Assembly (NCBI GenBank): GCA_951406725.2
Contig: OX597814.1
Span: 142,848,001 to 142,912,000, forward strand
Origin: Octopus vulgaris
Lineage: Eukaryota
DNA length: 64,000 bases
Direction of reading: 5' to 3'
Below the pieces are notes generated by a model. The model searched no databases. It saw only the letters and a list, made by a program, of their open reading frames with translations, and was not told the origin of the DNA. Positions 3,453 through 61,086 of this stretch are shown piece after piece (the first letter of the stretch is position 1; every line of letters starts with the position of its first letter). The translations under genes were made by a program, and so were the position numbers.

Positions 3453-3542
3453 ACTTTTACAAGAAGAGTGGTGACAGTAACTTCGAAGTTTCGAAGTTTC
3501 GATAGTCATCGAAGTCATTGTCATCATTCCTCTTGTAAAAGT
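3453..3542. repeat. Imperfect 34-bp inverted repeat, probable PLE pLTR remnant
   Basis: ACTTTTACAAGAAGAGTGGTGACAGTAACTTCGA / TCGAAGTCATTGTCATCATTCCTCTTGTAAAAGT; minus strand has GAAACTTCGAAGT, as at 23806. Confidence 0.7.
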
Positions 3543-6395: not shown

Positions 6396-6526
6396 TCAGT
6401 ATCTCTCGAGTAAAGAACTTTTAATTACGCGAGTGATAGCATATTTGATGCAAGGAATATTAAAACAGAAAATTACTATTTTCTTAAATCTCACAACGAG
6501 AGATATTCAGCAACAGTACTTTGAAA

Positions 6527-6997
6527 TAAAGATTTTTGCCAACATAACATGGTAGTCCTGGTTTAGGACAAATGTTGCTGTAATTTAGCCCCAGGAGCCA
6601 TCGTCTCCAGTTGGCTATACGACACGATCTGTGTCCTTATATTTTCGAACGATTAAAACTTCGGCAAGTTACAGTGAAGCAATGTTTCTGCTAAGGATGC
6701 CCAATATGGCTGTTAATAATCTTTTTTACTATAGGTATAACACCTGAAATTTTGAAGCAGGGGCTGGTCGATTGCATCGGTCCCGGTGCTGACTGTGCTG
6801 ATGAAGGGAAATAACCCGGAAATCGCGATATTCAGATATTGTTTTGAGCTGAGTGGGGATGCTAAATTCCCTTGTTCGAAAATATAAGGACACAGAGCGT
6901 GTCGTATAACCAGCTGGAGACGATGTGTCCCGGGGCTAAATTACAGCAACAGTCGTCCTAAACCAGGACTGCCATGTTATTTTGGCAAAAATCTTTA
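6527..6997 (+). mobile_element. PLE-type mini element with inverted 124-bp arms and hammerhead
   Basis: Arm 6527-6650 is the reverse complement of 6874-6997; HHR lies between them. Confidence 0.75.
6793..6835 (+). ncRNA. Minimal type I hammerhead ribozyme
   Basis: CTGATGA-a-GGG-aaataa-CCC-g-GAAA-TCGCGA-TA; palindromic stem III ATCGCGAT; weak stem I CTGTG/TTCAG. Confidence 0.7.
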
Positions 6998-8183
6998 CTC
7001 CAATATTAAAACACTTCAATTGGATCAAATCAGTAATATAAGGAAAATATTAAGAGCCATATCCGAAAAGATAAAATAAGAACCAGTCGAGTGTCGGGGC
7101 CGATGCAATCAACCAGCCCCTGCCTCAATATTTCAGGTGTTATTCCTATAGTGAAAAAGATTATTAAAAGCCACGTTGGGCATCCTTAGCAGGAACATTG
7201 CATCACTGTAACTTGCCCAAGTTTTAATCGTTACGTAAATATATAGAATTGCATGGTTGTTGGTCGAAGCGTTGAACGTTTAGTAACAATATAAGTTGTA
7301 TATTTGTTGACGCAGATAAAAAGAATATTAAATAATTATTAAATAATATTAAATATCATTTATAATTGAATCATTTTTAAAACATTGCTCTCATGATAAA
7401 TAATAGTTATTTAGCCTGTTGAGTTGCCGATCAAAGAAGATAATAAATATTAATTAAGTAATTAATTAATAATGATTACATAGATCTGAAATAATGCGTA
7501 TTTCGTAGGAGATGGAAAAATAAATATTTTATTGACTCTTGAGAGGTGAAATGCTAGAAAAAACTGCGAGGGCGCAACAAAATATACTTGCAGATAATGT
7601 ACAATGGATAGTTCAGAGCTTAACGAAAACAACAAATGCATTGTTCAAAGGCAAAATGGATAATAGTATCAGATCGCACAAATAAAGATCAAGAGGTCAA
7701 TCCTCATAAAGATTATTGTAAATGTAATCTATGTTATTGGCCAAATCATATATAAATTGTTATATGTTATTAAAAAGTAAAAGCAAAATGATTCGACGAA
7801 AACTGAAAATTGAAAGAATATGAAAAGTCCAACAATGTAATAAACTGGTAAGCCACAGAGAAGAGGGGGAAAATTGAGCGTTTCGGTTAGTACTCTTCAA
7901 CGAAGGTTTCTACCCAAAATATTAAAATTTTCTTCTTCCTCTCAGTAAACCGATTTATTCCACTTTCGAACTGTTTATACTAAGGAACGCCCGTTGCAAT
8001 TATTCCCGATGGGGGGAAGCGAAAATGAAAGTGATCGTACTCATTATGCGGCGTGGTGGCACAGGAGAGGTAAGCAAGTGAGTACAGCGAAGGATTAGGG
8101 AAGACAAGGACAGATGCTGTAAGGTCGCTTAAGCTAACGTAACACTACCTTACCTTCATTTTTTTTATTTATTTATAATCACT

Positions 8184-11012: not shown

Positions 11013-12262
11013 TGTCGTACATCACTGCAAAGTGAAAATATTCGCTGATGACACTAAGCTCCAGCAAATCGTCAATGAAGAAGCAGACCGAACTCAACTC
11101 CAGTCTGATCTATATGCTGTGAGTCAATGGGCAGACAGAAACAAAATGCAACTGAATGAGGGAAAATTTGAGCTGATGCATTTTGGAAGAAATTCCTCAC
11201 TAAAACAACCTATTTCTTTATTACCCACAAGGGGCTAAACACAGAGGGGACAAACAAGGACAGACATAGGTATTAAGTCGATTACATCGACCCCAGTGCG
11301 TAACTGGTACTTAATTTATCGACCCCGAAAGGATGAAAGGTAAAGTCGACCTCGGCGGAATTTGAACTCACAACGTAACGGCAGACGAAATACGGCTACG
11401 CATTTCGTCTGGCTTGCTAACGATTCTGCCAGCTCGCCGCCTTACTAAAACAACCATACTCTCTTCCTTCAGGGGAACCGCTCACAGCCTCTAACAATAT
11501 CAGAGACCTGGGTGTAATTGTTGATGACGATCTCAGTTGGAGTGCACACATCAACAAGAAGGTCGATATAGCTCGTAGGATGAGTTCCTGGATCTTAAGA
11601 ACTTTCCGGTCCAGAGAACAAGATGCCATCATACCACTTTTTTCCTCCTTTGTACGGCCACACCTTGAATACTGCTGCCCACTGTGGTCTCCTCACACAA
11701 GACAAAACATTTCCAGAATTGAGTCACCCCAGAGGGCTCTCACTAAACAAGTTGAAGGCATGGCTGCTCTCGAATATTGGGATCGCCTTAAAGCCTTGAA
11801 ACTTTACTCCCTCCAGCGTCGCCGTGAGCGGTACATCATTTGTACGATGTGGAAAATATACCGCCAACTTTGCCCAAACGACCTAAACATTAGCTTCAAG
11901 GTTCATCCAAGACTTGGACCACGGGCTATACGTCCCCTGCCAAATTCAAGATCACAACATACATGTACACTGCAACATAATTTCTTTTCCTCAACAGGCC
12001 CTGCCCTATTTAACATTGTCCCGAGGGAGATCAAAGAGGAAAAGGATCCCATCAACTTTAAACAGAGTCTGGATAGATTCCTTCAAAGAATACCAGATAA
12101 GCCACCCATAATTGGATACAACTCACCCAACAAGAACTCACTACTTGAACAAAACTTGACTTAAACAGGATTCGAATAATCCTATCAGGTGGTGCTATTA
12201 AGTTAGACATGGCCTGGACCAATCTCTGGTCGAAACATATCTAAGTTTTTATCTAAGTTTTT
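11008..12262 (+). mobile_element. 5'-truncated CR1/L2-group LINE (RT C-terminal half and 3' UTR), interrupted by a SINE
   Basis: KIFADDTKL, IRDLGVIVDDDLSW, VRPHLEYCCPLWSPH and LYSLQRRRER motifs; 3' tandem ATCTAAGTTTTT; frame is continuous after removing the SINE and one TSD. Confidence 0.92.
11211..11443 (-). mobile_element. Young SINE family B
   Basis: Head AAGGCGGCGAGCTGGCAGAA, core CCTTTCATCCTTTCGGGGTCGATAAA (resembles the Meta-SINE core as I recall it); TSD ACTAAAACAACC at 11199-11210 and 11444-11455. Confidence 0.92.
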
Positions 12263-18719: not shown

Positions 18720-19122
18720 CTAGTTGACCATGTCCCTTAGTGGCTGACGATATGCGCATCTCTGATCACAAGGAGAAGTAGTGGAGGAGCATCATAGACG
18801 TGTGTTGAAAGGAATTCTTAGAGGTTTGGATAATTCACCTTTGGAAACATGGGTGGATTGTTTAAGGATGTTTCCTTAAACAATCCTTATTCAGGGACCT
18901 TTTGTGCGGGATGGGCTACTCGACCAGAAGAAAATTCTAACTGGGCCCCACCTGCAAGGTCATGCGCTGTTTATCTTGATATGAGCTCACCATGTCGCGC
19001 ACATATGGTTGTGATGCATGTGCCTGGTGTACCCTTATCAAACGGGTAGTCATGATGGGTATAGTGGGCTTCGTATATTTTACCCCAGTGTCACTTTGAT
19101 GGCATGCACTGCTCTCTCACTC
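18720..19122 (+). mobile_element. Unclassified element ending in (AAT)n
   Basis: GC-richer non-coding block ending GCTCTCTCACTC then (AAT)n, directly upstream of a Dong-like copy. Confidence 0.4.
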
Positions 19123-19186
19123 AATAATAATAATAATAATAACAATAATAACAACAACAACAACAACAACAATAATAATAATAATG

Positions 19187-19237
<51 letters not shown>

Positions 19238-19239
<2 letters not shown>

Positions 19240-19726
19240 GGTCACAGAAAACGAGAAAGCAACCATACTCTGGGATATGCCGATACACACAGATAGAGAA
19301 ATTAAGGCCAACAGACCAGATATAGTTGTCAGAGATCATGAAGAAAAAAAATGCTTTCTAATTGATGTATCAATACCGGCTCATGACAACGTGTCTCTAA
19401 AAGAAATGGAGAAACTCTCAAAATACAAAGACCTGGAAATAGAGGTAACTAGAATGTGGAATCTGAAAACAGAAACAATTCCTATCATAGTAGGTGCATT
19501 AGGCATGATAAAAAAATATTCAGACAAATACATAACAAAAACACCAGGACTTACAAACACATATAACATACAGAAAATTGCACTACTAGGCACTGCACAC
19601 ATCCTACGCAGAACACTTTCCATACAATAACCATCAGAGCATCACAACAAATCACAGCACATACCCAAGGCACACAGAGCTGCGCTCGGTAGTGAAGTGA
19701 AAGCACGCTATAAAAATAAAACTACC

Positions 19727-25252: not shown

Positions 25253-25503
25253 TTATTATTAGTCAATTCATTAGCATTTGATCATTTGATTAATCGATTG
25301 TTTGATTAACCTTCCGGTCAATCAATCAGTCAGCTAGATTTGTCAAAGTCCTTTCGTAGCCATTCACGACCTCATCAATTATATGACTTTCTGTTCCATG
25401 TCTGCTTGCAGACAAACCTAGATGATTGATTGATGGATCTATAGATTAGTCGGACAATCGATTAGGTAATTTGTTAAATGCTAACAAATTGACTAATAAT
25501 AAA
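25253..25503 (-). mobile_element. About 92-bp imperfect inverted arms flanking a degenerate hammerhead-like core
   Basis: Arms 25253-25344 and 25412-25503; minus-strand interior TTGATGAGGTCGTGAATGGCTACGAAAGGACTTT. Confidence 0.6.
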
Positions 25504-25899
25504 ATTAGGGAAATAGAACCAGTGATTGTGTTTATTTTTGTCATAATGACCCTCCTGCGATACAACAAAATATGTTTCAGCACATGAGTTCTCATCAAGA
25601 ATCTTGCAAACCAAATGTAAATTTTATGAAACAAGAAAACAGTGTTTCCTCATAATCTGTTTATCTTTCCTCTGCGCGAAACACTGTTCTACACTCCGGG
25701 TTCTATATGCAAAGTTGGGCCTCCCAACTTTAATAGACCAAAGACTTTTTTTCCTAAATATATACTGTTGAGAATGTGGTGCATCTAATATGTTCGTGTG
25801 TCATTTAGGCTATTAAATACGATAATTTATTTATAGTGAATATAAAACTAACATAGAGCTGTGAGAAAACATTACCACACCGCATCACACTCCCCACTA

Positions 25900-45826: not shown

Positions 45827-46059
45827 TATTTCTTTACTACCCACAAGGGGCTAAACACAGAGGGGACAAACAAGAACAGACACACGGATTACGTCGTTTA
45901 CATCGACCCCGGTGCCTGACTGGTACTTAATTTATCGACCTCGAAAGGATGAAAGGTAAAGTCGACCTTGACGGAATTTGAACTCAGAACGTAACGGCAG
46001 ACGAAATACGGCTGCGCATTTCGACCGGCGTGCTAACGTTTCTGCCAGCTCGCTGCCTT
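45827..46059 (-). mobile_element. Family B SINE inserted into an older, opposite-strand B copy
   Basis: TSD GATAAATTATGTACC at 45812-45826 and 46062-46076. Confidence 0.9.
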
Positions 46060-46695
46060 TTGATAAATTATGTACCCGTTAAGTACTCATATCGCATCTA
46101 GACATGGGTTTGTAGTTAAGAAGTTCGCTTTTCAACCACATGGTCTTGGGTTCTGTCCCATGGCGTTATATCTCCACAAATGTTTTCTATATAGATTCGT
46201 GCCAATCGACGCCTGAGTGAAATTGGTTGTCGAAACACGTCATACATACAAACAAACATACATACATATACACATGTGTTATATGTGTGTAAATATATGT
46301 GTATGAATGCATTTGTTTCTCTTGTATTTCTTTAAGTTGATACTGTTAAAAGAAAAAAACAACGGTGTCTGCTTAAAGCCTAGCGAGTTAACAATACGAT
46401 GAAAGCCTAATTTTAAAATGAGCGCTTGGGTTCATACCATCTACTAAAAGCGTGAAGGCAGTGCCCCGATATGACCACAATCCAACAAATGGATTGAGTA
46501 TAAGTGTAATCTATTGTATCTCTTCCCCAAAATCTTTATAGCCTCCTCACAAAGGACGATGGACTGGCCGATTACGCAGAGCAGCGGGCAAAATGCCTTG
46601 TTATATTTAATTATCACACCCACCCCACCTATACCTTCTCAACCCCATCCTCCTCCCGCAGATACCAAATCCACCCATTCCTCTCCGACAAAAAA

Positions 46696-47441
46696 AATAA
46701 AAAGACACTGGCATACAGGAACCCACAAACTTCCCCTCCCATTGAAAGTTGTTTTGCATGTATGATGTTTGAAGGTGTAGATCTGGAACTGATTAACAAA
46801 ACAACGAGATGGAAGAACACAAGGTTTATTAACGTGGAAGAAAAGACAAATGTTAAGGGGTGGCATACATGTGTTTTAGTATCAGAGAAACTGAAGAACG
46901 AAATAGAAAAGTATAAAGGTGGGTACAAGTGTTGGAGAGTGAACTATGACATGAAAGTGTTGCCGGATAATATAGAGTATGAAGAACTTATAAAAGAACA
47001 GGGATTGGATATTTTGGATGGTAAAGAATTTAAAGGAAGAAGGCGGCGAGCTGGCAGAAACGTTAGCACGCCGGGCGAAATGCTTAGCGGTATTTCGTCT
47101 GCGTTACGTTGTGAGTTCAAATTCCGCCGAGGTCGACTTTGCCTTTCATCCTTTCGGGGTCGATAAATTAAGTACCAGTTACGCACTGGGGTCGATGTAA
47201 TCGACTTAATACCTATGTCTGTCCTTGTTTGTCCCCTCTGTTTAGCCCCTTGTGGGTAATAAAGAAATAGGTAAAGAATTTAAAGGAAGTGAAGCTACTC
47301 GGAGGTGGGGCAAGTAGCTGCATTTTCATTTTTTCATTCACCTTATATTATACATTTTTTTTTTTTTCGTTTTTTTTCTATGTCCCCGCATGTCTTTGTA
47401 TTGTCCCCTCTTCGTTGGCCCCTTGATGGCAATAAAGAAAC
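46696..47441 (+). mobile_element. Putative LINE-like 3' end (short ORF plus tail), interrupted by a family B SINE
   Basis: Frame continues across the SINE as ...GLDILDGKEFKG|SEATRRWGK*; tail TGTCCCCTCTTCGTTGGCCCCTTGATGGCAATAAAGAAA resembles the family B tail. Confidence 0.45.
47040..47269 (+). mobile_element. Young family B SINE
   Basis: 20-bp TSD GGTAAAGAATTTAAAGGAAG at 47020-47039 and 47270-47289. Confidence 0.93.
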
Positions 47442-48435: not shown

Positions 48436-48489
48436 AGAGTGAATTTTTAAGGCTTATAAACCTAATGTCTATAATTATTACTAGTGTGA

Positions 48490-48672
48490 AAGCGGCGAGC
48501 TGGCAGAAACTTTAGCACACCGGTCGAAATGCGTAGCCGTATTTCGTCTGCCGTTACGTTCTGAGTTCAAATTCCGCCGAGGTCGACTTTACCTTTCATC
48601 CTTTCGGGGTCGATAAATTAAGTACCAGTTACGCACTGAGGTCGATGTAATCGGCTTAATCCGTTTGTCTGC
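48490..48672 (+). mobile_element. Family B SINE, 3' truncated
   Basis: Head and core intact; tail ends early. Confidence 0.85.
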
Positions 48673-48859
48673 ACTTGGTCTGCCTAGGAGTTTGTTATGT
48701 CCTAATATATGCACTGCTTCCTAAAGTTTTCTAATTTTCCTGTGTTGCACTCTGTCAATTATTTTGAACTTATCCATAGGGGTCGGTAGTCTCCATTTTC
48801 TCTCCACACGTAATCAACTATACCTGACTTTTCAATATCCCCTCGTGCTCGTGCCTTCT

Positions 48860-49185
48860 GAGTGCTGTTCTTTTGGATCCATCAGTGACATGGAGAGTGG
48901 GGGACACGCTGAATAGGGAACAACCTGTTCTCCATACCTGACAATCTAGGCTTGGATCCTATCAAATACACTATACTGGAGAGACAGAACCGGACAGTAC
49001 ATCGAGAAGGACGGTCCGGCCTCGTCTACGGCGTTGACAATACAGGGAGCCACAGTTACCGGTTGTAAGTCGTAGCTACAACTCAAAGAGCACTGAAACA
49101 GTACACAAGCGCGGCTTATGTGGCAGAGACTGTCACTCGTTCATTGGATTGTTCAGTCACAGGCAACTTTGTTACAGTAGGGCCA
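48860..49185 (+). mobile_element. Decayed RTE-clade LINE C-terminus
   Basis: LCGRDCHSFIGLFSHRQLC resembles the RTE terminal CGRxCxSRIGLxSH motif. Confidence 0.55.
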
Positions 49186-49382
49186 ACAAATAGGAAATTC
49201 ATCCATGGTCAATATCGACAGACAAACAGATATTTCCAACGTCAAGAAAATAGAGGAGCAGTGAAGAACTGGTGTCGCTCTTCATCTTCGTTTGTTTGTT
49301 TGGATTAATGAGCTGAATAATTTCACTTACAACAGAAATAAAACTAGTGCTATCTTAAGGCTTGGATACACTGGGTAGTTGT

Positions 49383-50018
49383 CAGAACCGGATTAAGACC
49401 CACAGAGGCCCTACGCACTTAAAAGATTTTGGTGTCCCCATATTTATGTAATTCAAAATATAAACAATAACAAACCATAGAATAAATATTTATTTTTTCA
49501 AAATGAAACAAAACTAACAGTAAAATGGAAAATAATATTTACTTTTGTATACTACCATTTTATTTAAATTTGAAAAGTTTTCTCCTACTTCTTTTAATAG
49601 CAGAGTCTTTGATCAGATCCTCACTGTGACATCATGAACACTTCGAAATTATATTGCTGATCACTTCGAATATTATTTTAGCAAGTCTGAAGTGATTTAC
49701 CATTTCTTATTTCTTTATTGCCCTCAAGGGGCTAAACCTAGAGGGGACAAACAAGGAAAGACAAAGGGATTAAGTCGATTATGTCGACTCCAATGCGTAA
49801 CTGGTACTTAATTTATCGACCCCGAAAGGATGAAAGGCAAAGTCGACCTCGGCGGAATTTGAACTTAGAACGTAATGGCAGACGAAATACGGCTACGCAT
49901 TTCGCCCGGTGTGCTAACGTTTCTGCCAGCTCACCGCCTTGTGATTTACCATTTCTGTGGTGCCCCTGCTTTCCTGGAGGCCGTAAGCATGTACTTATTT
50001 TGCTTTAATCCAGCATTG
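49383..50018. mobile_element. hAT-type non-autonomous transposon containing a family B SINE (49708-49940)
   Basis: Termini CAGAACCGGATTAA / TTAATCCAGCATTG; 8-bp TSD GTAGTTGT / GTAGTTGC; SINE TSD GTGATTTACCATTTCT. Confidence 0.7.
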
Positions 50019-50549
50019 GTAGTTGCTTGGAGGATAAGGGAACGACTGATAGAGGAACCCAATGCTAATCTATATACGTATGCTGTGGTTTTCTGTAAGC
50101 AAATAAACACTACAGGCTCCGGTACATAAACGCGAACCCTTTAACCATTGATACTCTCGATTATATAATTCGGTGTTTGAATAATAATCTCAAAAGGCAA
50201 GATTTCAGGTAATGAAGCCATTTAACACTGGAGATTTCAGTATGAAAAAGTGAACACTGAAAATGTTTAAGAATTTTTATAACATGCAAAATATAACTTT
50301 TTACCTTTTTGCTGTAATCATCTAAATTCCATCGATTAAACCTTGTTTCATTACAGAAAGCTCTTTCATTATAGGAAAACTTAAAGAAGAGAAAAATTTT
50401 TCGCATTTTCCTGTTTTGTTTTAACATGTTATTTTCTGTTGTGGCAATATATATAACCTTTTGTTATATTTCTGTTGAAATACACTGCCTTTGTTTAAAG
50501 TAATTTTGATAATAATAAAGGATTTAGTACAATAACATTGTCATTATTA

Positions 50550-51190
50550 AGGTGGTTCAAATTAGCAGAAATGTTAGCACGCTGTACAAAAGCGTTTAGC
50601 GGCATTTTATCCTTTACGTTCTGAGTTCAAATTCTGCCGAGATCGACTCTGTCTTTCTTCACTTCCAGATCGATAAGTACCAGCTGGACACTGGGGTTGA
50701 TATAATCGACTTAACTCCTTTCCCGAAGCTGCTGGCCTTGTGCCAAAATTTGAAACCATTATTAAGCTGGCGAAAGGTGGCAGCTTGGCAGAAACGTTAG
50801 CAAGCCGGGCGAAATGATTAGAGGCATTTCGTTGGTCTGTACGTTCTGAGTTCAAATTCCACCAAGGTTTACTTTGCTTTTCATCCGTTTGGGGTCGATA
50901 AAATAAGTATCAGTTGTGCATTGGGGTTAATGTAATAGACTTACCCACTCACCCGGAATTGCTGGCCTTGTGCCAAAAGTTGAGACCATTAGTAAGCAGA
51001 TGAAAAGTGGCACGCTGGCAGAAACTTTGGCACACCGTACTAACAGTACTTACTGGGCACGTCGTCCGTCTTTACGTTCTGAGTTCAAATTCCGCCGAGG
51101 TCGATTTTGCCATTCATTCTTTTGGGTTCGATAAAATAAGTACCCCTCCACTGAAAACTGCTGACCCTGTTCCAAAATTAGAATTATGAT
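50550..51190 (+). mobile_element. Tandem trimer of older family B SINEs, possibly inside a piggyBac-like MITE (about 50453-51311)
   Basis: Three B cores with GCTGGCCTTGTGCCAAAA-type tails; outer ends CCTTTTGTTA / TATCAAAAAGAG are degenerate. Confidence 0.7.
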
Positions 51191-53431
51191 GCTGGTGTTT
51201 GGAATATAAATTAACATGAAATTTTGATGGGAAGTTTTAATTCAGATCACAGGAAACGTGTATCACAGGAATATGTTCGGTTTCAGATGGTTTGATATCA
51301 AAAAGAGTTGCAATCAAACTATAACATCTTATGTAAATTTAACTTCATGTGCTGTTTTGCTTGATTGACAGAGCCATTATAACGCTGAACAAAATACTTA
51401 GCGGTAGTTAGTCACGGTTTTCACATTCCAGACGAGAGAAGTTGGAATTGAGCTAATTTCTTGTCTAATCCAGTTAGTGACATAATTTGGAATCAGACTG
51501 GAACAATTCCACTTCTCCTACACTGTAAATTCTTTCGAAGTATTGCCCGAATATTAGATTACACATTTCCTAATTACTTCATACCTCTTTGCTAGGGATG
51601 ATTTTAAAGTGGTACCAACAACATCAATATAAACTGAAGTGTACATGGTTAGGAACCTCACTTTGCAACCACGTGGTTTCGGGTTCAGTTCCACAGCGCG
51701 GTAATTTGGGAAAGTGTCTTCTTCTATAACCGGGCTTTGTAAAAGAATTTGATAGACAGAAATTGTAAAGGTTCGTGTATAATGTGTGTGTGTAACTCCC
51801 ACCACCTGATAGCCGGTGGCTGGTTTACATCTCCGTAACCAAGCCGTTCGGCCAAAGTGATCGACAGAATAAGTACCAGACTTTAAAAATAAAAATAAGT
51901 TCTGGTTCGATTTGTTCGACTAAATTCGTCAAACAGTGCCCCAGCTTGGCCTCACTCTAATCACTGAAACAAGATAAAAGAAGCTATATAAATAAACGAA
52001 AATTCTTCTGGAATTTGAAACTGTAGTGTGGTCCTCAGATGTCACTAGTACTCATTCTCAGCTGAGAGTACGAGAGCAACATGAAATAAAGTACCTCGTT
52101 GAAGGACACAACTCACTCATCCGGTGCCGAAATTGAACCTATGACAAATCGTCTGCTCAACATCTCTAATCTCAAAACTACGAGTCTTCAGAGTTTTAAT
52201 GAAATATCTGTGACAGAATTAGAAAAGTATCACTCAACATAGTACTGCTATTTTGTTACGTTTTGAGTTCAACTTCCATTAATGTCAGTTTTGCCAGTCG
52301 TTTTTCTGGAGGTCGAAAAAAAATGCTGTTCAAATATTAGGATCGATATAGTCGATTATTCATTTAAAGGCGGTACTCCATTATGACAGGAATCCAATGA
52401 ACGAAACCCAACCCGTAAAAGAATATCTAAAATCTAATCACATTTTTCTTAATAATAATATATAAAAAAAAAAATCCTTCTATATATTTGTAAGGCAATG
52501 CCATTACTCATGCTGAGTCTTAACCATATGAGTAATACGGGAACAGAGGACTTTATGGGGTAGGGATAAAAGGGGGGAAAAAATAAACAAACAAACAAAA
52601 CAAAACAAAAAGCATTTCGCCAATCTGGTGGAAAATGCAGAAAAATGATATGAATATCCATTCATAATAACTTGAGCACAAAGAAAACATATTTACCAAG
52701 TTGTATCTACAACGAATATTGTTAAAATTCAAAGCAAATTAGCCCTTTTATCGTAATGCAATAAAATGCCATGTTTCTCCATTCCTATTTACCATTTTCT
52801 ATTAATATATATCTCAAATGCAAAGGCAACTTTATTACCAATTCCGTAGTTGATATTAACTGGTGATGGAAGAGAGGGTTATATAGAGGTTAGTCAGTAG
52901 AAACGTTAGCGCACTAAACTTGTTGCGCTACATTATTTACTTTTATTATTATAGGTAGTGAGTTCAAATCCAGTCGGTATCGACTTTATTTTCTTGACAT
53001 TGTTTAGTAACAGGTCAACTATAATCCAGCAGATATGATCAAAGGCGTTCTTGCCGTAACCATCCATCCGTTTTTAACATTTGCATTTATATTATCAAAC
53101 AACAATATTTCTTTCCCTTTTTAATACAACAGGGTGTAATTTGAGGGAGATTTGCTTACTATTTCTTGCAGGTAGAACAACCACATATAAACATTAAGCT
53201 ATCGCATGGGTCGATGAAATTAATTCCAGTGATGCACTTGGATTGATGAAATCGATCACGTTTTTTCCCTTGAGGAAATTGATATTAGGCCAATTCAAAG
53301 AAATCGATATTAACTGAAATATATTGTTATTTAGTATTATTAACATCATTATGGCCCAAAATGGCAGAATCGCAGGAATCGGCAAAGCGCCGAAAGAAAC
53401 GACTTACTGTATTTATTTATTTAGTCAAGAC

Positions 53432-53466
53432 ATCGTTCGCGGTCTTTTGGCTAAGATCAAAGTGTA
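53432..53466 (+). pseudogene. RNU2: 3'-truncated U2 snRNA retrocopy
   Basis: ATCGTTCGCGGTCTTTTGGCTAAGATCAAAGTGTA matches the U2 5' end (AUCGCUUCUCGGCCUUUUGGCUAAGAUCAA-GUGUAG); TTTAGT lies on both sides. Confidence 0.85.
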
Positions 53467-53704
53467 ATATTTTAGTACATTTTACTTTTTGGGTTCAGAT
53501 CTCACCTGTGCCTTTCAATATGCCGGGTTTGAGATTCATAAAATGAATAATAACCAAATAGTAGAGTTCATATCATCATATATCATTTTCTTTCTCGATC
53601 CTCTAAGGTTTCCGTGGAGTACAGTAATCCCTCGACTACGTTCCACCACCCCACCCGCGATAGGTGAAAATCCGTGAAGTAGAAATGACACTGAATATAT
53701 ATTT

Positions 53705-53775
<71 letters not shown>

Positions 53776-53807
53776 TTTATTTTAAGCAGCAGAAAATTCA
53801 ACAAAAT

Positions 53808-53845
53808 CTGTTACTCTGAGTTTCTCGTTGCCGTTCATCAGACAG
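53808..53845 (-). ncRNA. Minimal type I hammerhead ribozyme (inverted copy)
   Basis: Exact reverse complement of 56044-56081. Confidence 0.7.
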
Positions 53846-54787
53846 TTTTTGCTAGAATGGAACCGATATATCAATTCAATCTAGACTCTTACAAACGCTA
53901 CACCTTTAAAAAGAAATGGACTTGTTTGATTGGCCCTTTAGAAAAAACGGTCAATCTTCGAGCGATAAACAAAAAGGTCAAAAATATACGTATATATATA
54001 TAAAAAACTTATAAAAATTATTAAATCCGAGGAAAAAACCTTACATTGAATAAAATACATATTGACGTTAATGAAGAAAGTGCAAATCAATGCATAGAAA
54101 TTAAACCTGTTATAAATATTACACTGCAATACATATTTATATTAAAATGTACATATATATATCAACATACACAAAAGGATGCGCGCTAACGCCATACATA
54201 TACAGACGTATGAATATAAATCTAAATATACACATAAATGCATGTGTACATATATTCACGCAAAACCATCTCGCACGCAAGCTAAAATTCATCTATGTAG
54301 CGATTCTCATATACTGAGTAAGGGGGGGAACGAAAGAAAGGGAGAGAGAGAAAAAGGAACGAAGGAGGGGTGGGGAAAAAACGAAAGAAGAAAAAATTAT
54401 GGATACAAGCTGTCTAACGGCATTATTGGCATATATGGAGACATGTATACAACCACAAGTTCGAATGGATACATATACATACAGTCGTGTATGTGTGTGC
54501 TTAAGCACAAACATACTCTCACTTACACATACACAGATACGCATGCTTACAAATACATATCCTTTGCTATACACATCAACATTCTAATTTTGACAACATT
54601 GCTTTTTTTTAAAAAAACATTGCTTTAAAAATAAAAAAATAAAAAAATTGATAAAAATAAAAATAAAAATAAAAATTAAAATATATACGAAAGACATAAA
54701 ATAAAATATAACATCCTATTTTGGATCATTTATAAATAATCAAGGTAATATAAATAATCAAGGTAATCCTATACAATACAAAAACAT

Positions 54788-54949
54788 GGAGCATACAAAA
54801 ATAATTTCAAGTGCAAATTTTGTCTATTAGAAAAAATGTACATCTTATTCAAAGACAATAATTCTTTGAATCAAAGAAGTGAGCTAATGAACTTATGTAG
54901 GCACGCGACTAAATTTAAAATGTCGAATATAAATATACCATATGGATAG
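54788..54949 (+). pseudogene. PLE GIY-YIG endonuclease C-terminal fragment
   Basis: GAYKNNFKCKFCLLEKMYILFKDNNSLNQRSELMNLCRHATKFKMSNINIPYG*; CxxCxxEKxxI...LNxRSE...CRH..KF motif. Confidence 0.85.
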
Positions 54950-56043
54950 AGTGTATATTTTGTATTTTTGATTTTGATTTTGACTCTTGAACGATGAGCG
55001 CTACGATGGATTTTGTTTCCAAGCTATGCGGATCTTAATCCGTATAGCAAAGTCTTATGTTTCCACATATACATTAGGAAAAACCTCCGACTTTGTTTTC
55101 GTGTTTTTGTATTGTATAGGATTACCTTGATTATTTATATTACCTTGATTATTTATAAATGATCCAAAATAGGATGTTATATTTTATTTTATATGTCTTT
55201 CGTATATATTTTAATTTTAATTTTAATTTTTATTAATGCACCCATTTTTTTTTTTTTTAAAGCAATGTTTTTTTAAAAAAAAGCAATGTTGTCAAAATTA
55301 GAATGTTGATGTGTATAGCAAAGGATATGTATTTGTAAGCATGCGTATCTGTGTATGTGTAAGTGAGAGTATGTTTGTGCTTAAGCACACACATACACGA
55401 CTGTATGTATATGTATCCATTCGAACTTGTGGTTGTATACATGTCTCCATATATGCCAATGATGCCGTTACACAGCTTGTATACATAATTTTTTCTTATT
55501 TCGTTTTTTCCCCACCCCTCATTCGTTCCTTTTTCTCTCTCCCTTTCTTTCGTTCCCCCCCTTACTCAGTATATGAGAATCGCTACATAGATGAATTTTA
55601 ACTTGCGTGCGAGATGGTTTTGCGTGAATATATGTACACATGCATTTATGTGTATATTTAGATTTATATTCATACGTCTGTATATGTATGGCGTTAGCGT
55701 GCATCCTTTTGTGTATGTTGATATATATATGTACATTTTAATATAAATATGTATTGCAGTGTAATATTTATAACAGGTTTAATTTCTATGCATTGATTTG
55801 CACTTTCTTCATTAACGTCAATATGTATTTTATTCAATGTAAGGTTTCTTCCTCGGATTTAATAATTTTTATAAGTTTTTTATATATATATATATATACG
55901 TATATTTTTGACCTTTTTGTTTATCGCTCGAAGATTGACCGTTTTTTCTAAAGGGCCAATCAAACAAGTCCATTTCTTTTTAAAGGTGTAGCGTTTGTAA
56001 GAGTCTAGATTGAATTGATATATCGGTTCCATTCTAGCAAAAA

Positions 56044-56081
56044 CTGTCTGATGAACGGCAACGAGAAACTCAGAGTAACAG
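56044..56081 (+). ncRNA. Minimal type I hammerhead ribozyme
   Basis: CTGT-CTGATGA-aCGgcaaCGa-GAA-ACTC-a-GAGT-A-ACAG; stem I CTGT/ACAG; near-palindromic stem III; A-A at the base of stem II. Confidence 0.7.
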
Positions 56082-56189
56082 ATTTTGTTGAATTTTCTGC
56101 TGCTTAAAATAAAGCATATTACTCTACCACTGGTATTTGAGTACTCTTTTTTCCACCTTGTTTCACATTTATGTGTTTACTACGGTATA

Positions 56190-59025: not shown

Positions 59026-60084
59026 TAATGAAAAATGCTTTCCTTTCTGACTAAAAGAGTTAAAAATCAAATCATTCGTTCCTTAGCTGTCTTCCACTTT
59101 TTATCGTTCGGGTGTCGATGAAAATCAATGCAAGTCAAGTTAAATATTGGACTCAAATTTTGGTACAAGGCCAGCAGTTTCAGGTGCAGTGATAAGTTGG
59201 TTGCATCAACCCCAGTGCTCAACTGGTAATTATTTTATCGATACCGAAAGGATGAAAGACATAGTCAACCTCGGTGCAGTTTGAACTCAGAATGTAAAAT
59301 TTATGGTATATTTCCTATTATTCATGGTGGCAAAAGTGCACTTTCAAAATTATCCAATATATAAGGGGTAACATTCAGGTAATACGTACACAAACACACA
59401 CACACACGTATTTTTAACTTTTAATTAATTCAAGCATTAGACAATGGCCATGTTGGAGAGCTGCTTTGAAATAGACAAATGAAGCGACCCCAGTACTTTT
59501 TATTAGAGTCTGGCACTTATTCTATCAGTCTATTTTGCCGAACCGCTAAGTTACGAGGACATAGACACACCACCAGCGGTTGTCAAGCAGTAGGGGGTGA
59601 GAGAGTAAACATGAAGACACACACACCTCACATACATATTTATGTATACAGAGGGCTTCTTTCAATTTCCGTCTACCAAATCCACGCACAAGGCTTTGGT
59701 CGGCCCGGGTCTATTAGTAGAACACACTTGTCCAAGTTGAAACTGAACCCGGAACCATGTCGGTGGGAAGCAAACTTCTTACCACACAGCCTCACCCATA
59801 TACAGTTATTTCAAAAGGTGACCATAGATATTAGTCTATGTTTTCTAAAACATTTCAGACTCCTTGACCTAGAATTGAAAAATAACAAAAGTATGAATGT
59901 TTAGTTATTATGCTACATTCTATATGTTATGTTGGCGTGTATGTCTGAAGGTTTTGTTTATTGCTTGTCTGTATTGCTTTTTTATCATTCCCAAGACACC
60001 CATTATTATTACTCGAAGACCAACTTTTCTCTAAAGCTTGAGAATTAATATAAACAATATGATATATCACTATATATCATACAG

Positions 60085-60317
60085 AAGGCGGCGAGCTGGC
60101 AGAAACGTTAGCACGCCGGGCGAAATGCGTAGCCGTATTTCGTCTGCCGTTACGTTCTGAGTTCAAATTCCGCCGAGGTCGACTTTGCCTTTCATTCTTT
60201 CAGGGTCGATAAATTAAGTACCAGTTACGCACTGGGGTCGATGGAATCGACTTAATCAGTTTATCTGTCCTTGTTTGTCCCCTCTGTGTTTAGCCCCTTG
60301 TGGGTAGTAAAGAAATA
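60085..60317 (+). mobile_element. Young family B SINE
   Basis: TSD GATATATCACTATAT at 60061-60075 and 60318-60332. Confidence 0.9.
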
Positions 60318-60343
60318 GATATATCACTATATGGATCCCTTGT

Positions 60344-60689
60344 ATGCTAAAAATAGACGTCAAACCGTCTTACCACTAAATCTATGTTCTCAACTTAGTA
60401 ACGCGCTAGTCCGAGTGTGTTTGAATCGAAATTTAAATACATGGCATTGGAACTCTACAATCGTATCCTCTCACGGAGACGGGTGGTGTCCAGTTCCATT
60501 GTTGTGTCAGCACCGATTTCACTGAGGAGACACAGACAATTGTTGAATTGTCCATGTCGAAACCTTAAGGTATGGAATTAAGTACTATGTTTATTTCTTT
60601 TCATTTGTCTAGCTCGTAAACATCTAGCGGGTTACTAAGTTGAGAACATAGATTTAGTGGTAAAACAGTTTGACGTCTAATTTTAGCAT
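60344..60689 (+). mobile_element. PLE-type mini element: 66-bp inverted arms around a hammerhead
   Basis: Arms 60344-60409 and 60624-60689. Confidence 0.8.
60516..60578 (+). ncRNA. Type I hammerhead ribozyme with extended stem II
   Basis: ATTTCA-CTGAGGA-GACA..GACAATT-gttg-AATTGTC..TGTC-GAA-ACCTTAAGGT-A-TGGAAT; full core, G-C closing pair, palindromic stem III. Confidence 0.85.
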
Positions 60690-61086
60690 CACTTGACCAG
60701 GGATCCCGAATCACCGAGCCACAGACCAATACCGAGCTGGGGATCATTTGGTACCAGGACGCACAAAAAGAATAAATTTTAGAATTTTATTTCTCTTTTA
60801 TTGACTATCGCAACCTGCGGTGTGTTTTTGCACTATATGCACCTGTATTATATAATAAATAAATAAATCTAACATAATAATGATCTTAGTGTTTTTATAT
60901 AAATGTGTATATATATATATACAAAATGAGAAAATGGAGAAACATACCTAAATCAATCATCAACCATCAGATAATACCCAATCAATACTTTATTAAACCA
61001 TTACATAACAGCAATGACATTATACATAATATATTGCAAATATAACTAGACATGGAAATAGAAATAGAAAATACAATTACACCATA

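Follow-up and report, generated by a model that had tools for sequence, protein, structure and literature searches.

Introduction

Penelope-like elements (PLEs) and metazoan non-LTR retrozymes are the described systems closest to the repeat studied here, and the statements on them draw on parts of the sources cited. PLE insertions carry an inverted, 5'-truncated copy, often with the tail at one end (PMC8557442), and PLE units are flanked by a target-site duplication (TSD) of 9-10 bp (PMC3846280). For the Poseidon element PAc in vitro, both strands have been described as cut, with the RT starting at two internal positions of the RNA that set the tail (PMC11167929; Frangieh et al. 2024). The same source gives uncut RNA as the main substrate and reports that RNA-seq ends do not fall on the ribozyme site (PMC11167929). 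Metazoan non-LTR retrozymes are 150-450 nt long (Cervera & de la Pena 2020, PMC7229834), a later study lists retrozyme units of 51-972 nt (Li, Clavereau & Pollet 2026, bioRxiv 10.64898/2026.07.22.740005), and in both works the metazoan non-LTR retrozymes are proposed to be non-autonomous PLE derivatives.

The window, which is the whole stretch of Octopus vulgaris DNA analysed here (64,000 nucleotides), contains at 60344-60689 what a sequence-only reading had taken for a 346-bp hairpin element with 66-bp inverted arms and a complete hammerhead ribozyme. We propose that it is a decayed copy of a hammerhead repeat with a unit of about 501 nt, likely pasted in trans by a PLE enzyme that primed from both strands of one staggered cut. 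Like the metazoan non-LTR retrozymes, the family is non-coding and low in GC, has a highly self-paired predicted RNA with one canonical type I hammerhead, and occurs as dispersed monomers. Its 501-nt unit is longer than the retrozymes of 2020, though within the size range of the 2026 study as far as that source was used. Unlike in the retrozymes, a head-to-tail dimer with two ribozymes was not found in the family, and we therefore call it retrozyme-like and not a member of the retrozymes. Like the EN+ PLEs, it shows partial tandems, a 5'-truncated copy lying inverted at the 5' end, a one-sided tail, a TSD around the whole inverted unit, and microsatellite or AT-rich targets. It differs from the EN+ PLEs in having no RT/GIY-YIG ORF, a tail of about 90 nt instead of 30-40 nt, and a canonical 4-bp stem II in place of the minimal PLE hammerhead. 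Judged from its sequence, the 501-nt element likely works as a non-autonomous PLE passenger that resembles the non-LTR retrozymes. The family's insertion ends give countable predictions on inverted insertion by PLEs and on the role of the hammerhead, a matter of modest importance.

Organization of the locus

Alignment within the window confirmed the inverted match, as the arms 60344-60409 and 60624-60689 are complementary at 62 of 66 positions (94%) and the 346-nt strand 60344-60689 has a fold z-score of -14.3 against 100 shuffles. The 346-bp boundaries did not hold on either side. At 25 of 28 other places the family runs on beyond 60689, and from 60693/60698 on the window sequence belongs to a separate, unrelated repeat family. 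On the left, the arm extends to 60047 and is split by a later repeat with a 15-bp direct repeat. The features are as follows, with unit positions numbered from m1, the first base 3' of the predicted cleavage site.

60047..60075, minus strand: outer part of the inverted copy, m131-157, which ends at the family's short 3' end; 25/27 identity to the unit over 60047-60073
60061..60075, plus strand: left copy of the 15-bp direct repeat, the TSD of the presumed SINE; exact match at 60318-60332
60076..60317, plus strand: later insertion of a very high-copy repeat into the inverted arm, between the 15-bp repeats
60318..60409, minus strand: inner part of the inverted 5'-truncated copy, m52 to about m143; 92% identity to the unit over 60314-60409
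60399..60689, plus strand: forward 5'-truncated copy, m328-501 then m1-117; 93% identity to the unit over 291 nt
60404..60409, no strand: 6-nt microhomology at the head-to-head junction, coinciding with the predicted unit-RNA helix m52-58/m332-338
60515..60579, plus strand: type I hammerhead ribozyme motif, cleavage predicted after 60572
60698..60865, plus strand: unrelated repeat family adjoining the truncated 3' end; 393 genome candidates, other copies of which start at the same motif

The segment 60318-60409 takes in both the left arm of the earlier reading and the right copy of the 15-bp duplication (60318-60332). The repeat at 60076-60317, which we take to be a SINE, reaches a summed contig depth of 10^6-10^7 in DNA-type runs. 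Contigs of the two DNA-type runs X5 and X6 continue from 59900-60075 into this repeat, and those of X8 and X9, which bear other species labels, end at 60075, where it starts, which weakly suggests that the X8 and X9 samples lack the SINE.

The forward copy is without its 3' end, which is expected to be the long end at m~251. The start of the 60698-60865 family resembles a hAT-type terminal repeat. An extension of the right arm to about 60706 was considered and rejected, as that stretch is the start of this other family. The junction is spanned by contigs covering 60600-60888 in X5 and X6 and is therefore not an assembly error. The lost right end (m118-251) and the TSD of the window copy were absent from the following ~12 kb, comprising the rest of the window and the next 9 kb (L088). 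The locus is thus a decayed, SINE-interrupted, 3'-truncated and otherwise ordinary dead repeat copy. As a side observation, the cleavage site is located within a 43-nt GT...polypyrimidine-AG stretch (60570-60612) that looks like a short intron, and no reading frame results from it.

The hammerhead ribozyme

A strict descriptor scan of the window returned one complete type I hammerhead, at 60515-60579, in agreement with the complete ribozyme claimed before. The putative ribozyme has the type I core CUGANGA/GAAA/UH and stems I to III, with a predicted cut after 60572. Stem I (60515-60521/60573-60579) has seven pairs, two of them G-U; the core lies at 60522-60528 and the GAAA at 60559-60562; stem II consists of 4 bp, a CA/CA internal loop and 7 bp; and stem III is palindromic. 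An Rfam scan of the window gave no hammerhead match at E<=1. Alignment of the family's ribozymes used 33 of 36 rows, the three rows with indels being left out. The core is kept in 9 of these 33 sequences, and the window copy alone keeps the core, G10.1-C11.1 and stem III all intact. Stem cells are paired in 87% of cases compared with 26-42% in slid controls. Covariation over the stems did not rise above shuffles in the 33 sequences (107/500 and 159/500), and one double change, A-U to C-G, occurs in six of them. The window copy carries the best-preserved ribozyme of the family, which makes it the natural choice for a cleavage assay.

The palindromic stem III had been read as favouring cleavage as a dimer. 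A dimer model is given in PMC4209133, and our folding predictions are consistent with it. A monomer fold with all three stems is predicted to be rare (p 0.004, against 0.53 for stems I and II), and the stem III palindrome would form a self-duplex of -13.2 kcal/mol.

The family unit and its template

The family was searched in the octopus's own 2.8-Gb genome, with 40 candidates scored per search, a sampling that favours tail- or ribozyme-bearing copies. The queries gave 191, 310 and 747 candidates, which are rough figures and not copy numbers. The 191 belong to the 346-bp query, and among the 40 scored of them only the window and L007 match the full 346 bp. A 27-nt ribozyme pattern with at most three mismatches had 33 genome matches and a control had none. 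Tiling of the loci yielded a circularly permuted unit of ~501 nt whose tail runs back into its head, a junction crossed by 21 segments in 72 loci. The unit is ORF-less, with a longest open frame of 59 aa and a GC content of 35.5%. The 101 segments of at least 150 nt have a median identity of 88% to the consensus (range 69-95%), indicating that the family is old. Contigs of four putative-RNA runs contain scattered divergent copies of it, with no circular joint among them. An snRNA-type promoter in the unit was considered and rejected, as upstream regions from 5 of the 20 U2 loci fetched did not outscore shuffled sequence in alignment (27-198 of 200). The U2 snRNA genes (L217-L236) themselves have at least four upstream sequence types.

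Copies of the family across 82 loci are 5'-truncated to a variable extent, and their 5' ends pile up just after the ribozyme site. In the loci from the tail query, 13 of 15 segments reaching m19 stop at m3-18, compared with 22 of 85 in the three preceding bins (Fisher p=1.3e-5); over all loci the counts are 18 of 61 and 43 of 352 (p 0.0013), these p values being optimistic in that the arms within a pair are not independent. Seven segments extend upstream by more than 400 nt, and each of them ends at m66-97 of the preceding lap. The longest segment measures 696 nt, and a copy with two ribozymes was not seen among the family copies found. The pile-up and the lack of a two-ribozyme copy suggest, at the level of sequence, a linear template, cut or uncut, rather than a rolling circle. 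We infer that the m3-18 stops may be run-off from cut RNA and that the m66-97 stops may mark the transcript start. Two other causes may account for the pile-up. One is stalling of the RT at stem I; in the other, the stem III palindrome anneals and the centre of the hairpin is then lost, a course against which the solo and asymmetric cases L048, L196, L054, L055 and L059 speak.

A bolder reading, less likely than not, is a one-ribozyme PLE passenger that never needed a circle. A partial-tandem master would be transcribed from near m66-97, its RNA would be cut once by the hammerhead as an intermolecular dimer, and twin priming from two fixed sites would copy the cut 3' product as well as the uncut RNA. 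If this is true, the decayed copies are a fossil record of ribozyme cleavage in vivo, contrary both to uncut RNA as the PLE substrate and to the rolling-circle spread of retrozymes.

The classical alternative, a non-LTR retrozyme in which tandem masters give a circular 501-nt RNA that is turned into DNA, with inversions arising by two-strand priming, is possible though rather unlikely. It would fit the circular permutation of the unit and the copies that extend over the cleavage site as well as the tail-head junction. The circular consensus also has a fold z-score of -8.5 with 67% of its bases paired, which together with its GC content is as described for retrozyme circles in the part of PMC7229834 used here; the real, decayed copy L005 reaches a z-score of -2.3. 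However, none of the 33 ribozyme-motif matches has a same-strand neighbour one unit away, the three pairs seen being opposite-strand. The longest segments span 1.1-1.4 units, and a circle would not impose the m66-97 stop shared by all seven long ones. Tandem masters could nevertheless have been lost or lie among the unscored candidates.

Insertion ends and head-to-head pairs

The 3' ends of the segments fall into two clusters comprising 91 of 125 ends, 44 at m140-172 (short) and 47 at m228-262 (long). The two preferred sites, m~157 and m~251, are ~90 nt apart, and the ends often adjoin TA, CA or TAT repeats. The 82 loci contain 37 head-to-head pairs, of which 24 are long/short, one is long/long, none is short/short, and 12 have a disrupted end. 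The sole long/long pair, L205, is old (69-76% identity). The window copy is one of the 12 disrupted pairs, and its left arm has the short end. Partial tandems, the inverted 5'-truncated copy, the tail on one end, the TSD and the AT-rich or microsatellite targets are all present in the family's insertions.

Direct repeats flanking the pairs, typically 12-14 bp, score at least 12 in 7 of 20 pairs compared with 15 of 380 mismatched controls. Outside low-complexity DNA the corresponding counts are 5 of 20 and 5 of 380. TSDs are unreadable in microsatellite targets and for the window copy.

In 10 of the 24 long/short pairs the short-end arm extends beyond the 5' limit of the long-end arm by 10 nt or more, and the long-end arm has the extra tail. 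Therefore, neither arm in these pairs can have been copied from the other. For them this contradicts a fold-back origin of the arms, in which one cDNA primes itself where it is self-complementary and the fold-back copy must lie within the first copy; antisense self-priming is an idea put forward in PMC3846280. The overlap of 1-11 nt at 13 of 30 head-to-head junctions would suit fold-back, as would the position of the window junction on the predicted helix m52-58/m332-338. Against it, the arms of L030 barely overlap (8 nt), and we regard this origin as very improbable.

It is likewise very improbable that the unit represents no more than the pseudo-LTR of an autonomous PLE, every copy being a very strongly 5'-truncated one. 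PLEs in this genome do make the same inverted structures (window 53770-56119), but all 21 segments crossing m251/252 enter the unit's own tail. With all 33 candidates for m240-380 scored, PLE ORF pieces turned up at two of the 82 loci only, L027 and L146. At L146 the ORF piece lies ~800 nt from the repeat. At L027 (1205-1790) the 5' fragment of a PLE-like ORF is fused to the unit at m309, and the repeat adjoins mid-ORF. A template switch at the PLE 3' end was rejected for L027, as other copies of that PLE run through the point. This ORF-bearing family is one that we assign to the PLEs from its motifs; Pfam returned no families for five proteins including the PLE pieces. BLAST found no match between the unit and the 5' regions of this one PLE family.

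A MITE-like hairpin element spreading as a fixed arm-ribozyme-arm unit, although L007 matches the window across the whole 346 bp, is scarcely credible, as the arms of L007 end differently, arm overlap in 30 pairs lies anywhere between 7 and 216 nt, the two ends are unequal, and the window arms were cut by later events. Inverted arms that vary in length from copy to copy leave no fixed MITE-like unit. Identical arm boundaries, on which the idea of a self-propagating class of hairpin retrozymes depended, were looked for and do not exist, and one other of the 40 scored candidates matches the whole 346 bp, so that idea is refuted. Its alternative, minimal PLE insertion products, is supported with one change: the source is a non-coding unit of ~501 nt and not a truncated ORF-bearing PLE.

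Proposed mechanism of insertion

Based on these ends, we propose the following for insertion by a PLE enzyme priming from both strands. The GIY-YIG/RT protein of a PLE, acting in trans, would nick AT-rich DNA on its two strands, with the nicks ~12-14 nt apart. From each 3'-OH a cDNA would then start at one of two internal sites of the template RNA, and the two truncated cDNAs would be joined head-to-head by a short microhomology, so that the overlap of the joined copies looks like terminal arms. Many templates would be the 3' product of ribozyme cleavage, with run-off at m1, and others would be uncut RNA that started one lap earlier, near m66-97. The window copy would come from an uncut or ligated template, as the cleavage site lies inside its forward piece. 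Two fixed start sites, one per strand, would explain the rule that the tail is on one end, and 5' ends that accumulate just past the cleavage site suggest cut RNA as a template in vivo. Against the proposal, no autonomous PLE with the sequence of the unit was found, the tail is longer than the 30-40 nt described for PLEs, and the long/long pair L205 breaks the pairing rule.

In L1 twin priming, the second primer binds a single RNA at an internal position that varies. The 501-nt family resembles it in its inverted truncated insertions within a TSD, presumably primed from both nicked strands. Unlike in L1, both 3' ends are fixed and the copies overlap, and two passes over the template are therefore needed. 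The two 3' sites may be compared with the two-strand cutting and two internal RT starts of Poseidon PAc, from which the family differs by the piling up of its genomic 5' ends just after the ribozyme site. The one-sided tail on PLE insertions is already published. For the near-strict short/long count and the run-off pile-up we found no published description in the PLE and retrozyme sources used here, which is weak evidence of absence.

Other hammerhead sites in the window

About ten hammerhead-like motifs had been counted in the 64 kb. An intact core with stem I is present at just three sites, 60522(+), 53841(-) and 56048(+), and this pattern has no match in reversed and complemented controls. 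The core-only pattern has 13 matches in the window, compared with 8.6 ± 3.0 in 50 shuffles. Degenerate motifs were found at 6798(+), 25378(-) and 7900(-), and another near 3500(-) by eye alone. The other sites named in the sequence-only reading have no sequence in common with the 60344-60689 locus. Its notion of a recurring arm-ribozyme-arm class thus survives as an insertion geometry shared among unrelated families and not as a fixed unit.

The site at 6527 (6521-7232) is a copy of an abundant tandem hammerhead repeat of ~352 nt with 3446 genome candidates, and carries stem I substitutions relative to other copies. The arm-ribozyme-arm copy at 25253-25510 is older and has a degenerate core at 25378(-); its family has variable coverage and 937 genome candidates at 69-84% identity. 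The region 53770-56119 is a large head-to-head inversion with arms of ~1 kb and a left end in (TA)n, and the arms carry identical minimal hammerheads at 53841(-) and 56048(+). A 56-aa frame within it (54779-54946; Pfam 0) resembles a PLE endonuclease C-terminus. The inversion has the same geometry as the 60344 locus, from an ORF-bearing element. Long inverted repeats also occur at 48489-50943 and 45857-47241 (arms of 140-189 nt).

The segment 3300-3325 is a fragment of an ORF-bearing PLE-like family (cf. L091-L109), which has a hammerhead-like motif in its 5' region with a different palindromic stem III. At ~30 nt downstream from the cut, this family and the 501-nt unit have a short pyrimidine-rich motif in common, seen by eye and with no BLAST match. 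The open frames 11421-12164 and 19100-19630 (Pfam 0) resemble C-terminal parts of non-LTR retrotransposon proteins. At 53430-53542 a weak U2 snRNA-like match, under the gathering score, is probably a U2 snRNA pseudogene fragment.
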